Position numbers and translations under genes: made by a program. The notes under the pieces were generated by a model, which saw only the letters and a program-made list of their open reading frames with translations, did no database searches and was not told where the DNA came from. This document shows positions 13,832 to 40,727 of a stretch of DNA of 64,000 bases, in pieces. The first letter of the stretch is position 1; each line of letters begins with the position of its first letter. This stretch comes from a virus, in IMG/VR virus record IMGVR_UViG_3300045988_019695, positions 32,001-96,000 of that record; one strand, written 5' to 3'.

Positions 13832-14676
13832 TTAATTCCGAATCGCTAGCTATGGCATTCTCGCTAGCAGCTTCATCTTTCGATGAAGAATTGACTATAT
13901 CACAACCCTAAAGAAAGGGTTTCCAGTACTTCGGGTCACTTGACCCTACACCGTGGTTAGCGGTTAGTCGATGAACCTTCAAGTCTACTTTGTCAACACG
14001 AAGACCTTTAAGCAATCCAGCTTTAATATAGTCTCCTGTGTTCGCATGTTTTTGAATTAAACCATAAGTATAACCACTTATTCTAAATTGCTTTCTCAAA
14101 GCTTTAAACCCATATATGGTAAACTGCGCTCCATTGTAAACATTAGTAAATACATATGCAACCTGCGGACCATCTTTTGTATGTATTGGATGGTTAAAGC
14201 AATGTCCTTTAAACAGTCCATGTTCCTTTCCGTGTTGTATATTATATTCTGGTGTGCACCATTCTAGATTAGATAGATAATTATTTAATTTATTTCCATC
14301 TATATGGTTTACTTGTGGTAAATTGTTTGGATTATCTAGAAATGTCATAGCTACAAGTCTATTGACTCTATAGTCGTATCTTTTACCATCTTTAGTAAAA
14401 GTGACATGCAGATAACCTCTTTTATTTTTACTCGGCGATAAAAATTTATTACTTCTATGTGACCAAATATCACCATGTGTTGTACATGCGTAAAGACCTT
14501 CCCATCCCGGTATGTCTTTCATCTAGTAGCCTTGCTCGGCTGCTGATTGTCCATTTTTTATATTATTCATATATCTATAATTTTATTTATAACTCTATGG
14601 TATAAAATTCTTTAGGAGTTTCCAGCAATTCTCTGGATTTTTCAATTTATATTACTATAAAAGGCGGCACAGGTTA
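13832..14676 (-). mobile_element. group I-like intron (minimum core) carrying an HNH homing endonuclease, interrupting the capsid gene
   Basis: The interval is bounded by the stop closing exon-1 read-through (14674-14676) and the stop opening the exon-2 frame (13832-13834). The 3' part has a GAAA-capped hairpin (TTCTTCATC GAAA GATGAAG) and a GCTAGC...GCTAGC stem. True splice sites lie a few to tens of nt outside this core. Confidence 0.6.
13908..14522 (-). CDS. HNH homing endonuclease (NUMOD4-like N-terminus plus HNH_3-type core)
   Basis: Motifs IPGWEGLYACTTHGDIWS and VNHIDGNKLNNYLSNLEWCTPEYN. 204 aa with no internal TAG; the ORF ends in TAG. Confidence 0.85.
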   Translation of the reverse strand: MKDIPGWEGLYACTTHGDIWSHRSNKFLSPSKNKRGYLHVTFTKDGKRYDYRVNRLVAMTFLDNPNNLPQVNHIDGNKLNNYLSNLEWCTPEYNIQHGKEHGLFKGHCFNHPIHTKDGPQVAYVFTNVYNGAQFTIYGFKALRKQFRISGYTYGLIQKHANTGDYIKAGLLKGLRVDKVDLKVHRLTANHGVGSSDPKYWKPFL

Positions 14677-31060: not shown

Positions 31061-31135
31061 TGAGGACGCAGTGGAATCGAACCACTGTCTCTAAATCTTC
31101 AAATTTAGAAAGTTAACCATTACTACAACACCCTC
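31061..31135 (-). tRNA. tRNA-like gene with irregular anticodon arm (isotype undetermined)
   Basis: Good T-arm (AGTGG TTCGATT CCACT), a D-loop with GG and a G-U-rich acceptor. The anticodon helix TCTAAAT/ATTTAGA is 7 bp around a 6-nt loop TTGAAG (or 5 bp with the 8-nt loop TTTGAAGA), never the canonical 5+7. Confidence 0.5.
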
Positions 31136-31144
31136 ATTCTGTTG

Positions 31145-31216
31145 TTGCGGAGGACGGATTCGGACCGCCGACCTTTAGGTTATGAGCCTAACGAGCCACC
31201 ACTGCTCCACTCCGCG
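31145..31216 (-). tRNA. tRNA-Met (CAT), initiator-like
   Basis: Canonical cloverleaf: D stem GAGC/GCTC, anticodon arm TTAGG CTCATAA CCTAA, T-arm GGCGG TCCGAAT CCGTC. The C1 x A72 mismatch and A73 are as in bacterial tRNA-fMet, but the anticodon stem has only two G-C pairs. Confidence 0.75.
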
Positions 31217-31355
31217 ATAAGCACGTAACCTTTAGCTGGAGTTACGCAGAACCAGTATTGGGTCCATGTGTCAGCTTACCATGGTAGCCTTTTATTTATA
31301 GTGTACACACATGGATGCCACTTTATTAAACTATAAAATTTAATTCAAAAAGTCG

Positions 31356-31429
31356 GAGTCTATGCAGGAGTCGAACCTGCTAACTATTCCCTTTGTATCG
31401 GGCCGTCTTTACCGTTTGACTAATAGACT
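31356..31429 (-). tRNA. tRNA-like gene with degenerate anticodon stem (isotype undetermined)
   Basis: Perfect 7-bp acceptor (AGTCTAT/ATAGACT), canonical T-arm (GCAGG TTCGACT CCTGC) and a D-loop with GG. The anticodon region GGCCC GATACAAA GGGAA pairs only CCC/GGG around an 8-nt loop. Confidence 0.45.
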
Positions 31430-31773: not shown

Positions 31774-32163
31774 TTAACATGATTCACAACAAACGTCTCC
31801 ACAACAAGCATCATCACAAACAAGGCTCTCAGACTTGCTCTTCTGCTTAGCTGCCCACTCTTCCTTTCTCTTCTGATCAGCAGCTTTAGCATTATCAATA
31901 GCCTTTAACCAATCTTCAGACTTAACTATCACAAAGTCTGCGCCGAGATCTTTGTCATAGAATGTAACAAGAATGTCGTTCTTCTTTGCATCTACTTCGA
32001 TTATTTTATCAGGGAAGAATTTAGATTCCCACTCAATATGAGCGTCCTCTGGAATAACATAAATATCATCAATTCCTCGTGCAGATCTATTAATTGCCTT
32101 AACCTCAGCTGTATCAGTATCAACAACAATAGGCTTGCGTTCAATATTTATTATCTTTTTCAT
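31774..32163 (-). CDS. hypothetical protein with Cys-rich C-terminal tail (129 aa)
   Basis: Uninterrupted ORF. The last 17 residues are LVCDDACCGDVCCESC. Confidence 0.5.
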   Translation of the reverse strand: MKKIINIERKPIVVDTDTAEVKAINRSARGIDDIYVIPEDAHIEWESKFFPDKIIEVDAKKNDILVTFYDKDLGADFVIVKSEDWLKAIDNAKAADQKRKEEWAAKQKSKSESLVCDDACCGDVCCESC

Positions 32164-35991: not shown

Positions 35992-36663
35992 ATGTCAAAG
36001 TATCGTTTATTTAACATGTCGGTGCTGCAGGCAAAGCCTCAGCCAGGACAAACTGAAGGTAATTTCTATGTAGCTGGAACTCTCGAAAACCAGGAGTGTG
36101 TGTTTGAAGAGAATACAAACATTGTTATGTTTGGAGTTGATGGACTCATTGCAGCTATTCGTCCATATTTGGATGCAGCTCATGGAGGTACAGCTCAAAC
36201 ATCTAACGAAGACAATATTCCAGAACGCTATCGCTTCTTGAATGGCATCTTTGTACGCCAGAAGCTTGAGCATGGAATGAGTTATTTGTTGGATAACAAT
36301 GGAAGTCCAAGATTGGACAAATCATCAAATCAGCCTATAACTATGGACTCTGTTCTTGTATTCTGCATCCTCATCAGTGAGACACCAAAGGTTGATGGCA
36401 CACCAAACTATGCCAAAAACTGGGACCCTGTTTCAAGAGTTCGCTCTATTGAACGTCAGTTCTTCAGACCTGTATCAAACCAGCCAGCTACACAGGCAGG
36501 TGTTGCAGCTCCACAGCCAGCTCCTGACCCATTAGCAGCAGCTATGGGAGCTCCTCAACAGCAGCCAGCTCCTCAGCCTAATGTAGCACAACCTGCTCCA
36601 CAGCAGCCAGCTCCAGGCAGCGTGCCTCCAGCACCAGGAGCAGTGCCACCAGCATCCTTCTAA
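35992..36663 (+). CDS. hypothetical protein with Pro/Gln/Ala-rich C-terminal tail (223 aa)
   Basis: Uninterrupted ORF with GC-richer codons. The tail is PQPAPDPLAAAMGAPQQQPAPQPNVAQPAPQQPAPGSVPPAPGAVPPASF. Confidence 0.55.
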   Translation: MSKYRLFNMSVLQAKPQPGQTEGNFYVAGTLENQECVFEENTNIVMFGVDGLIAAIRPYLDAAHGGTAQTSNEDNIPERYRFLNGIFVRQKLEHGMSYLLDNNGSPRLDKSSNQPITMDSVLVFCILISETPKVDGTPNYAKNWDPVSRVRSIERQFFRPVSNQPATQAGVAAPQPAPDPLAAAMGAPQQQPAPQPNVAQPAPQQPAPGSVPPAPGAVPPASF

Positions 36664-37612
36664 CTAGCTTGCATCGTAGCGCCCTCGTGGCGCTACCTTG
36701 CTTCTTTGACAAATGCAACTCGCTTCGCTCAGACATCAGCTTAAAGCTTGCTTAGAGCTTGCCAAAGAAAGGAGATGGCAAGATACACAGGTGAAATTTC
36801 AGATAGAACAGATAGATAATATAAAACATAATAAAGAAGTAATCCTTGATTGAAAATTCAATATATGATTGCACAATATGCTCATTAATTTAGGGTTATT
36901 TAATTGCTAAGCGTAGCACAATAAGCGTGGATACATATCACAGTCTGTGAAGATAGTGGTATGTTTATTTTAAACTCAGCTAGGGAGAGTCTAACATAAT
37001 CACTGATGAGACCTAGGCGAAACTACACGTTGCATCATAGTGTAGTCTGATTAATTACTCAAAAGCGCAAATAGACCTCACAATACAATGGTCTGTGAAG
37101 ATAGTTGTATTGAACCGTTATCTCATGCGGTATATAAACTAGGATGACGGAGCGCCTACGCTAACGTGATAAATCGTAGGCAGTAATGTGGCAAGACATG
37201 GTCCCAAGCCCATGCACTACAACACGTGCTTATGGTACTTGCAAAGCTATAAGAGGTTCGCTTGTAGGACACAGAGGGTTAAATAGTAGTATTACATGTA
37301 TGCTGAGAAGAGACGTACAGCCTGCTTGCAAGAGGTGCTTCGTGAAATGCAATCTCTTCTCTATGACAATCCGAAGAGACGGATAGTGGTTATTATACGC
37401 TTACTGAAGTAAGAGGGTATACTATGCACGAATTCATATAAGGATATTGTGCTTGGCTATATAAAGTGCACACATAGCGACGGTTCGAGTCCAGTAACCA
37501 CTCTACCCTATCATGTTTTTTAGTTACAATTTTAGTCCATTTGGCATGGGTACATTGGTTCGTGAGAATAGATGTACCATTTTGATGATTATTAATCAAA
37601 CTAATATATATT
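36664..37612 (+). ncRNA. 949-nt ORF-free structured region (candidate ncRNA or long leader)
   Basis: Stops occur in all frames. It starts with the hairpin GTAGCGCC CTCGT GGCGCTAC. The 20-nt direct repeat GTCTGTGAAGATAGT(G/T)GTAT lies at 36943-36962 and 37091-37110, with a third partial copy near 37375. It ends with a GGTTCGAGTCC T-loop-like motif near 37486. Confidence 0.4.
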
Positions 37613-37903
37613 ATGAATGACGAAAAACATTCTTTCATGGACCAATTAAACTTATTCCTAGTAGGATTAATTGTTGGAGCATTTGTTGGAGCCTGTTTTA
37701 GTGCTAATGTCGTAAAAGGCAAGAACATTAAGACAGAGAATAAGCTTAAAGCGTATGAACAGTACTATAATTGTACTGAAACGCTTTTGGATTCTCTTGA
37801 TGGTACACATAATCTTGATCTGATGGATACAGATCTTGCAACAGATTATGGTGCAAATTATTTAGATGCAAAATCTAAGGTAGACAACTTAATTGACAAG
37901 TAA
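37613..37903 (+). CDS. small membrane protein (96 aa)
   Basis: One hydrophobic helix, LNLFLVGLIVGAFVGACFSANVV. Confidence 0.5.
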   Translation: MNDEKHSFMDQLNLFLVGLIVGAFVGACFSANVVKGKNIKTENKLKAYEQYYNCTETLLDSLDGTHNLDLMDTDLATDYGANYLDAKSKVDNLIDK

Positions 37904-37912
37904 GTGTTATGA

Positions 37913-38137
37913 ATGGATTCGACAAAGAAGACCACACAGAAGACATCTGGTACTCATAAAAAATATAAGCCAGGTCAATTAGTTACAATTAATCATCGTG
38001 TATTTAGAATTGTAAAAAAATATTGGTGCATGGATGATTGTTTATGTTGTTATGATAGAAATTATAAAAAATATGATTTCTGCATGAACCTACCATTAGG
38101 TTTAAAGATTAAACCAATATTAAAACATAAGGGTTGA
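37913..38137 (+). CDS. basic Cys-containing small protein (74 aa)
   Basis: Uninterrupted ORF. The stop overlaps the hairpin GGTTGA gttgca TCAACC. Confidence 0.45.
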   Translation: MDSTKKTTQKTSGTHKKYKPGQLVTINHRVFRIVKKYWCMDDCLCCYDRNYKKYDFCMNLPLGLKIKPILKHKG

Positions 38138-38279
38138 GTTGCATCAACCCTAAGTGTTTAATGTAGCCGTAGGGAGTCCAAAGCCTCCAAAGGGAAACCG
38201 AATTACAGATGGAACACAAAGCTCAAGTATAGGTGAGAAGTAGTCCTATACAAGTAAATAATGTTTAATTATCAAAATT

Positions 38280-40582: not shown

Positions 40583-40656
40583 GGACTTGTAGCTCAGTAG
40601 GTTAGAGCAACAGACTCATAATCTGGAGGTCCTAGGTTCAAACCCTAGCTGGTCCA
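40583..40656 (+). tRNA. tRNA with CAT anticodon (elongator Met or Ile-lysidine type)
   Basis: GGACTTG TA GCTC AGTAGGTTA GAGC A ACAGA CTCATAA TCTGG AGGTC CTAGG TTCAAAC CCTAG CTGGTCC A. The cloverleaf is canonical. Confidence 0.85.
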
Positions 40657-40727
40657 CAAAAGATGATTCCGTGAATCTTTAAAACCCGGATAGTTAACAT
40701 TTGTTGAATCTCTAATAAATTATCAAA

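Follow-up and report, generated by a model that had tools for sequence, protein, structure and literature searches.

A predicted RNA-processing cassette between two genes of a Burzaovirus-like crAss-like phage

The gap at positions 36664–37612 of a 64,000-nt stretch of viral DNA (positions 32,001 to 96,000 of the IMG/VR record IMGVR_UViG_3300045988_019695; this whole stretch is called the window below) separates a gene of 223 amino acids (aa; 35992–36663, stop codon 36661–36663) from one of 96 aa (37613–37903). The question is what a phage carries in such a gap, in which a sequence-only reading had seen direct repeats and strong hairpins and had proposed either a modular RNA or iterons. Our analysis led us to conclude, with a probability of roughly 78%, that the gap is a non-coding RNA-processing cassette. 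All features described here for 36664–37612 lie on the plus strand, in this order: a terminator-like hairpin, a first hairpin with a GUGA tetraloop (GUGA hairpin 1), a hammerhead ribozyme, GUGA hairpin 2 together with a hairpin in the P1 position of a twister ribozyme, this twister (twister A) with the RNA that it heads, and GUGA hairpin 3. The 96-aa open reading frame (ORF96), an 8-bp hairpin, a second twister (twister B) and the next gene follow. The modular RNA of the sequence-only reading has thus taken shape as a one-strand chain of GUGA hairpins, hammerhead, twister and a larger folded RNA, each with comparative support.

BLAST searches against phage records identified the window as part of a Burzaovirus-like crAss-like phage (Crassvirales, Suoliviridae, Oafivirinae). 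The nearest records were cr7_1 and cr124_1, both of the genus Burzaovirus, with approximately 86% identity across 15 kb. The genes switch strand at approximately 33.3 kb, with leftward genes on the minus strand and rightward genes on the plus strand, and the sign of the GC skew flips there; the gap sits approximately 3 kb inside the rightward block. Relatives are named below by fetched locus (L001 is cr7_1, L003 is cr130_1 of the genus Chuhaivirus; likewise L010, L201 and others). Approximately 35 distinct homologues of the ~320-nt RNA headed by twister A were collected, from IMG/VR, from two metagenome contigs and from two contigs of Segatella copri metagenome-assembled genomes (MAGs), and nhmmer found this RNA only in crAss-like contigs of approximately 100 kb. 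The two MAG contigs, L266 (JAJXAL010000002.1) and L267 (JAJWOH010000001.1), were approximately 101 kb long and had been binned into Segatella (Prevotella) copri. This binning is a weak hint at the host, and it agrees with the Prevotella-2-like character of the GUGA hairpin. A metagenome scan aimed at divergent 3' domains led to two loci, and a scan with a loose twister-P5-loop pattern was discarded, its matches being mostly due to chance.

Hammerhead and twister ribozymes

An Rfam scan, one of the checks proposed with the sequence-only reading, placed a RAGATH-1 hammerhead (RF03152) at 36973–37052; it scored 71.8 bits (gathering score 56.3) and covered model positions 1–77 of 77. The core was intact (CUGAUGAG...CGAAAC...GUC), with stem I formed by AAUCA/UGAUU and stem III by CUACAC/GUGUAG; the 7-bp stem ACTACAC/GTGTAGT noticed earlier was present at 37023–37046 and corresponds to this stem III. 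From the Rfam alignment, cleavage is predicted between C37047 and U37048. RAGATH-1 hammerheads were found at the same relative position in L001 (cr7_1), L003 (cr130_1), L010, L012 and L201, with 68.6–76.2 bits. Full-length match, open stem I, closed stem III and a 5' hairpin loop able to pair with the stem-II loop (CUAGG/CCUAG) are all shared with RF03152, and nothing essential differs; judged by its sequence, the hammerhead is a new but ordinary representative of this family. Its context is new, with a GUGA hairpin always directly 5' and a twister 70–140 nt 3' of it.

Twister ribozyme A was predicted at 37183–37278, with cleavage between U37184 and A37185. Compared across 25 distinct homologues, its conserved core reads UAA-UGUG-GC-AAGA-CAUGG-UCCCAAGC-CCAUG (37184–37214) and is completed, past a 50-nt P5 arm, by A-CACA-GAGGG (37269–37278). 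P2 (UGUG 37187–90 with CACA 37270–73) and the pseudoknot T1 (CCC 37203–05 with GGG 37276–78) were both 100% paired with two covarying pairs each, the pseudoknot T2 (GC 37191–92 with GC 37208–09) was 100% paired and almost invariant, and P4 (37197–201 with 37210–14) contained three covarying pairs. Taken together, 96.5% of cells were paired, against 27–45% in slid controls, 19 pairs had changed on both sides, and none of 500 shuffles matched any observed pairing measure. P2 switched from UGUG/CACA to UGCA/UGCA or UGUA/UACA, and T1 from C to A with G to U (L021, L069, L071) or from C to U with G to A (L061, L078). The motifs UAAUG, AAGCC and CAGAG were invariant in the 25 sequences, and the remaining core positions changed only alongside their pairing partners.

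These features agree with the twister class (Rfam clan CL00120; P1, P3 and P5 types) in the cut site U/AA (the slash marks the cut), P2, GC...AAGA, the P4 hairpin with its loop UCCCAAGC, the 3' strand A-CACA-GAGGG, and the presence of both T1 and T2 with covariation. Twister A differs from the class in that its P5 (37217–37267, with the loop UUGCAA at 37239–44) is a two-part arm of 50–90 nt, and in that a far larger conserved RNA has this ribozyme as its 5' domain. The register of the Rfam twister-P5 model, which joins the core to an upstream GACG-GAGCG, was rejected: this strand varied freely (GAG to UAG or AAG in L004, L015 and L011) and was absent or replaced in L002, L020, L021 and L041, while the downstream CACA-GAGGG covaried with the core. 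The place of P1 is taken by a closed hairpin 2–3 nt 5' of the cut, which is CCUAC...GUAGG here and showed a C-G to U-A covariation; the GUGA hairpin itself serves as the closed hairpin beside the cut in L021 and L201. Two sequences outside the twister pairing (both within 37139–37180) were near-invariant, even in L069 and L071: GAUGACGGAGCG and, in the hairpin that precedes twister A, the 16-nt loop GCUAACGUGAUAAAUC.

Twister B (38155–38216, plus strand; predicted cleavage between U38159 and A38160) was recognised by alignment with relatives. It reads UGUU-U/AA-UGUA-GCC...GAG-UCCAAAGCC-UC...GG-GAAA-CC...UACA-GAUGG-AACA and aligned base for base with the relatives' twister-P1 matches (52.6–55.5 bits), the optional P3 being replaced by a P5 mini-hairpin. 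It is preceded by an 8-bp hairpin (38130–38151, plus strand) between ORF96 and the next gene. ORF96 (37613–37903, plus strand) encodes a small protein with one hydrophobic helix, whose counterpart in cr7_1 is annotated as a "lipopolysaccharide assembly protein"; Pfam and PHROG gave no match for ORF96 and nothing useful for the flanking proteins. Elsewhere in the window, two matches to group I introns remained below the gathering score of 50, at 58096–58324 on the plus strand (33.4 bits) and at 13871–14079 on the minus strand (29.3 bits); an abundance of group I introns in core genes has been reported for Suoliviridae (PMC10136315).

GUGA hairpins and the fragment between the ribozymes

The two 20-mers that the sequence-only reading had reported 148 nt apart were found at 36943–36962 and 37091–37110, identical at 19 of 20 positions. 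The repeated unit is the GUGA tetraloop and the 3' arm of a 13–14-bp hairpin present in three copies; the 5' arms differ from copy to copy with complementarity kept, and the copies folded with z = −2.4, −2.8 and −4.0. Copy 1 (36933–36964; 14 bp with one A.A mismatch) contains the first 20-mer directly 5' of the hammerhead, and copy 2 (37081–37112) contains the second. Copy 3 (37549–37578; z = −4.0) reads GGUACAUUGGUUC-GUGA-GAAUAGAUGUACC followed by AUUUUGAU, or GGTACATTGGTTC-GTGA-GAATAGATGTACC as DNA; it ends 35 nt ahead of the ATG of the next gene and occupied the same position in essentially all relatives. This is the real third copy, and the partial one claimed near 37377 had to be given up, as GGATAGTGGTTAT (37381–37393) belongs to two other helices. 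The degenerate core GKTYYGTGARRATAG (at most one mismatch) occurred three times in the window, always in the gap and on the plus strand, against 0.20 expected, and 0 of 100 shuffles gave three occurrences.

Across all fetched loci, 45 distinct instances of the hairpin were collected. Their apex was fixed as YGGUYY-GUGA-RRAUAGR, with a G.U pair and an R.A mismatch, and their lower stems varied with compensation (GUAUAUC/GAUAUAC, ACGUGCU/GGCACGU, ACACUAC/GUAGUGU). Exact-core copies numbered 1–3 per locus, and real instances were confined to one strand and to this intergenic region; the sole other regular-expression match, in the unrelated locus L141, did not fold and is not a GUGA hairpin. Covarying lower stems beneath a fixed apical loop argue that selection acts on the folded single strand and not on a binding site in the duplex.

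The hairpins resemble those of the Bacteroides-1 (RF01694) and Prevotella-2 (RF03043) RNAs, which are likewise long and A/U-rich with a YUC-GUGA-GAR cap and an internal mismatch; some flanking single-stranded positions agree as well (GCAAAU, CCUNA). Bacteroides-1 matched weakly at 37065–37147, right over hairpin 2, with 30.7 bits, below its gathering score of 43, and another GUGA hairpin in L260 with 26.8 bits. Prevotella-2 matched hairpin 3 with 20.4 bits (gathering score 72.1), over model positions 57–96 of 116 only. The relation may be a shared hairpin module, not homology of the whole RNA.

Cleavage at both predicted sites would release a fragment of 137 nt (37048–37184, plus strand), with termini deduced from ribozyme chemistry, which contains GUGA hairpin 2 and the hairpin CCUAC...GUAGG (37155–37180) abutting the twister cut site. 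The equivalent fragment in L201 and L021/L260 is approximately 65–80 nt long and mostly one GUGA hairpin. In L201, the most divergent homologue, the hammerhead starts at the upstream stop codon, the twister lies approximately 80 nt further on, and the interval is essentially one GUGA hairpin; the arrangement in L260 is the same. The conserved unit therefore consists of hammerhead, GUGA-hairpin RNA and twister-RNA, in this order. Two other loci were composed differently. The equivalent gap of cr130_1 (L003, 2470–2861) has the RAGATH-1 hammerhead and four GUGA-type hairpins, without the twister-RNA; two of the hairpins vary in the loop (one has AUGA, the other the apex GCUC-GUGA-GAGU), a U-rich tract follows every hairpin, and there is a repeated AAUAAAUAGUNUAC box. 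In cr7_1 (L001, 2100–2500), the gap is approximately 300 nt longer and holds an extra insert with a 61-aa ORF (2213–2398) that is unannotated in the deposit, and there is a third, upstream GUGA hairpin.

A ~320-nt RNA with a twister head and a T-loop tail

From twister A to 37502, the sequence was the best conserved of the gap, with variable insertions at one site, right after GAGGG. Comparison of the relatives resolved two further domains in this stretch. The middle domain (37288–37361) consists of hairpin H1 (37288–37304; loop ACAUGU, 37294–99), the helix GAGAAGAG/CUCUUCUC (37305–12 with 37354–61), in which both sides had changed in up to seven sequences, and the hairpin GCCU-loop-AGGU (37320–36; loop UUGCAA, 37326–31). 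Pairing reached 98.4% in the 3' domain (37369–37502), both partners had changed in 18 pairs, and 0 of 500 shuffles equalled this. The domain comprises the hairpin AUCCG/CGGAU (37369–84), a 9-bp closing stem AGUGGUUAU/GUAACCACU (37385–93 with 37494–502), a D-arm-like stem with an inner UGAA hairpin and a conserved RGGG (37394–37421), two further arms (37426–52 and 37456–78) and the T-loop GG-UUCGAGU-CC (37482–92), which is UUCGAAU in L201. The closing stem covaried in a shorter variant of the 3' domain (L017, L018, L041), from U-A to G-C or A-U. The covariation comparison proposed along with the sequence-only reading thus found the twister, the 3' domain and the GUGA lower stems covarying among relatives.

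The T-loop is the T-loop-like motif GGTTCGAGTCC that had been pointed out near the end of the region; it lies at 37482–37492, approximately 120 nt ahead of the ATG at 37613. RNAalifold and the minimum-free-energy (MFE) fold chose a different hairpin, GAC-GGUUCGA-GUC, which was rejected since UUCGAAU in L201 breaks one of its pairs and keeps the GG/CC form of the T-loop. Counted from the T-loop through the closing stem, 12 stacked layers are present in both the CCAG-U... and the CCAAAU... variants, as many as in the acceptor plus T stack of tRNA. With its 9 bp, the closing stem differs from the 7-bp acceptor stem of tRNA, and a 7-nt anticodon loop and an anticodon arm are absent; as far as its sequence tells, the resemblance of the 3' domain to tRNA would be one of T-loop sequence and acceptor/T-like stack only. 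No Rfam family matched 37214–37538 at E ≤ 10, and our literature search found no paper on this RNA, nor on ribozymes or structured RNAs in crAss-like phages. We propose this twister-headed, T-loop-tailed RNA of approximately 320 nt as a new candidate RNA family without Rfam counterpart.

Three hairpin loops of this RNA hold perfect 6-nt palindromes, which were still palindromic after changing. The H1 loop ACAUGU had the variants ACUAGU (L021/L260), UCGCGA (L259), CUCGAG (L201) and, with wobble, ACGUGU (L014/L016); the middle loop UUGCAA varied to GUAUAC (seven sequences), CUGCAG (L259) and, with wobble, UUGCAG; and the P5 loop UUGCAA varied to UCAUGA (L071, L259). The middle-domain variant of L030/L041 had a wobble palindrome only. 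An intramolecular kiss between the P5 and middle loops was excluded because the two vary independently, the combinations GUAUAC with UUGCAA, UCAUGA with UUGCAA and UCAUGA with CUGCAG all being seen. By a rough estimate, each independent replacement has an approximately 6–8% chance of giving a perfect palindrome in a ~9-nt loop, and six palindrome-preserving replacements by chance are very unlikely, for loops that were picked after inspection. The overall palindrome density of the RNA was not significant (8 versus 6.1 ± 2.3 in shuffles), which limits the argument to the position of the loops and their persistence through change.

Loops of OLE and GOLLD that switch from palindrome to palindrome have been taken as support for symmetric loop-loop kissing between molecules, and ROOL and GOLLD are large ornate phage RNAs that form homo-oligomeric nanocages (PMC12286853). 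The palindrome-preserving loops hint that the ~320-nt RNA, too, may form homo-oligomers. Like ROOL and GOLLD, it is phage-encoded, ornate and protein-free-looking and lies a few kb from tRNA and tmRNA genes, and it has palindrome-switching hairpin loops. It differs from them in having no match to an Rfam model (E ≤ 10 at the gap, E ≤ 1 window-wide), in its length of approximately 320 nt versus approximately 580 and more than 800 nt, and in its ribozyme 5' domain and tRNA-like 3' domain. We tentatively entertain, as a possibility with the odds against it, that the RNA is a new ornate-RNA class with a twister-made 5' end and a symmetric homo-oligomer held by three homotypic kissing loops (as three different two-fold contacts, these would suit a D2 tetramer or a larger dihedral assembly). 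Such an oligomer would present several tRNA-like domains and could, for instance, be a decoy or scaffold for host factors that bind tRNA; at the same time, hammerhead and twister would excise a GUGA-hairpin RNA with 5'-OH and cyclic-phosphate ends. A tRNA cluster of the window, at 31061–31429 (minus strand), 40583–40657 (plus) and 42944–43297 (plus), includes a tRNA-Met and an ARAGORN call with an odd 4-nt anticodon (tgaa); it also contains a permuted two-piece tmRNA with the tag DNVNNIVDYTNVA (RF04321, 56.5 bits).

Alternative readings and proposed processing

At the start of the gap, the perfect 8-bp hairpin reported by the sequence-only reading was present at 36676–36696. It is GC-rich, reads GTAGCGCC/GGCGCTAC followed by CUUGCUUCUUUG, was kept in relatives and folded with −18.8 kcal/mol (z = −3.8), and it forms a terminator-like end of the upstream gene. 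Further on, a tandem CAGATAGA-A-CAGATAGA (36800–36817) was conserved, and L021 had extra short ATAGA-type repeats after its two CAGATAGA units. The motif RGATAGW occurred five times on the plus strand of the gap against 0.34 expected, a 15-fold excess, and not at all on the minus strand; the tandem is one source of this excess, and AGAUAG also belongs to the fixed apex of the GUGA hairpin. The first 190 nt (36664–36850) were conserved among relatives and displayed no covariation.

That the gap is free of ORFs, as first described, held in the sense that none is conserved or matches a protein family; mechanically, ORFs of 46 and 66 aa are present on the plus strand, and one of 111 aa on the minus strand (37393–37728) overlaps the gap. 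A coding role for the Cys/Arg-rich 66-aa ORF (37186–37386) or the 111-aa ORF has next to no credibility, as both are broken in cr7_1 and L201, the alignment of relatives contains indels of 1, 2 and 4 nt, substitutions compensate base pairing, and there is no PHROG or Pfam match; the 66-aa ORF had already been judged non-coding in the sequence-only reading, and it was indeed not kept in relatives. The iterons of that reading, a DNA-level array bound by protein at a replication origin or partition site, have 15–20-mers repeated between genes and the local enrichment of RGATAGW in their favour, along with a GC-skew sign change approximately 3 kb off, at 33–34 kb. However, the repeat is one arm plus loop of a hairpin, of which the opposite arm differs and compensates, and the lower stems covary freely in 45 instances. 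The copies are only three, irregularly spaced (148 nt, then 466 nt) and all on one strand, in the orientation of the ribozymes; in L021 and L201, the helix beside the twister cut is the hairpin itself; and the skew switch matches the divergent gene blocks at 33.2–33.5 kb, not the gap. We regard iterons as very improbable.

Two further alternatives accept an RNA and dispute what it is. According to one, the GUGA hairpins are intrinsic terminators or attenuators and everything else is debris without present function, the decaying remains of selfish inserts that carried ribozymes and of a degenerate tRNA; this would suit the U-rich tracts after hairpins 1 and 3 and after the cr130_1 hairpins, the gain and loss of modules among close relatives (cr124_1 and L020 are without the hammerhead unit) and the variable insertions after GAGGG. 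A 15-nt apex that does not vary and keeps its R.A mismatch is more than a terminator needs, however, and hairpin 2 has no U tract. Purifying selection on pairing extends throughout the ~320-nt RNA, and this RNA was kept from the window to L201, where sequence similarity is down to approximately 87 bits; the sequence-only reading had named a lack of both conservation in relatives and a transcript as what would speak against its proposal. Terminators with decaying debris are a poor candidate. The other alternative takes the ~320-nt structure and hairpin 3 as a cis-acting 5' leader, regulatory or stabilising, of the 96-aa gene, with the twisters trimming its mRNA. In almost every relative, an ORF96-family gene comes directly after the RNA, hairpin 3 stands at a constant distance of approximately 35 nt from the start codon, and twisters A and B bracket exactly the unit of RNA and gene. 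Against this, L022 keeps the RNA and hairpin 3 although its downstream gene has been deleted to seven codons, an unrelated 87-aa ORF lies between RNA and gene in L018 and L049, and cr130_1 has hairpins, hammerhead and a small membrane gene without the ~320-nt RNA. The RNA is also much larger and more ornate than known leaders, and a U-run (37515–20) and a hairpin with AUUUU separate it from the gene. A leader seems unlikely to us, if less so than terminators with debris, and an independent structured RNA is favoured.

Self-cleavage chemistry is established for the hammerhead and twister classes, and we infer that it applies to the gap, with actual cleavage, defined transcript ends, tRNA mimicry and a biological role. 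In the processing we propose, a transcript from upstream would enter the gap and be cut by the RAGATH-1 hammerhead between C37047 and U37048 and by twister A between U37184 and A37185. The small product, 137 nt here and approximately 65–80 nt in distant relatives, would bear 5'-OH and 2',3'-cyclic-phosphate termini, with a GUGA-tetraloop hairpin as its conserved content. The large product would be the ~320-nt RNA, from 37185 to approximately 37502 or possibly as far as the end of hairpin 3 (37578), and its own twister would give it a 5'-OH end. It would fold into a twister core with a long P5 arm, the middle domain and a multi-arm 3' domain that mimics the acceptor/T arm of tRNA by its 9-bp closing stem and T-loop. 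With twister A before ORF96 and twister B after it, the mRNA of this small gene would also be bounded by ribozyme cuts. A stable hairpin stands before every twister cut, so the upstream products would end in a hairpin and a cyclic phosphate; it is plausible that such ends stabilise these products and provide nuclease resistance without transcription termination. As to the role, a stable structured RNA acting in trans, as tRNA-like decoy or scaffold, is our guess.

Several observations weigh against this RNA-processing cassette. Twister A scored below every Rfam gathering score (twister-P5 25.0 bits at 37146–37213; thresholds 37.6 for P5 and 67.2 for P1), the homologous twisters of L069 and L201 reached 22.8–28.1 bits with twister-P1, and twister B was not detected by Rfam in the window; we attribute the sub-threshold standing of both twisters to their optional-stem architecture. 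A canonical P1 is absent from twister A, the flanks of the cut site and GAGGG not being complementary. Twister P1 has been reported to be dispensable for catalysis. The homologues all stem from one narrow phage clade and are mostly 80–90% identical, so that many covariation counts come down to a few divergent sequences, five or six in several cases (among them L021, L069, L071, L201 and L259). The MFE fold of the 318-nt RNA was no more stable than shuffles (z = 0.02), and the case for its structure therefore rests on covariation. Models of tRNA and tmRNA did not match the 3' domain (no ARAGORN call; no Rfam match at E ≤ 10 in 36500–37750), and its T stem has only two canonical pairs (GG/CC), against 5 bp in the cloverleaf of tRNA. 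A promoter was not identified between the terminator-like hairpin and the hammerhead: the Bacteroides −7 box was absent, and sigma-70-like matches were just somewhat more frequent than in shuffles (12 versus a mean of 6.3 ± 2.7).

Small ribozymes next to tRNA-shaped RNAs have a precedent in gut phages, where theta (HDV-like) ribozymes adjoin tRNAs (PMC10879173). As in those gut Caudoviricetes genomes, a small self-cleaving ribozyme is coupled here to a tRNA-shaped RNA, which suggests ribozyme-made ends. The theta ribozymes differ in being HDV-like and beside genuine tRNA genes, whereas the twister lies approximately 200 nt 5' of a tRNA-like domain that is not a tRNA, having no anticodon arm and no match to a tRNA model.

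Twister and hammerhead ribozymes occur near each other in the genomes of bacteria and phages, for reasons that a review describes as unresolved (PMC6765202). The locus described here, from a phage group that ranks among the most abundant of the human gut, offers an unusually readable case of such clustering: a small conserved hairpin RNA lies between two ribozymes, one of them, the twister, heads a covarying RNA of approximately 320 nt that ends in a tRNA-like domain, and a second twister would close the mRNA of a small gene. The idea that ribozymes make defined RNA ends thereby becomes a set of specific, testable predictions on products and their ends. If the self-assembly proposed for the ~320-nt RNA were true, it would add a third class, of far smaller size, to the RNA-only assemblies of phages, the first one to be excised by its own ribozyme. 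Leaving self-assembly aside, the gap in Burzaovirus-like genomes would still be annotated, with one known ribozyme, two predicted twister variants missed by Rfam and a new candidate RNA family.

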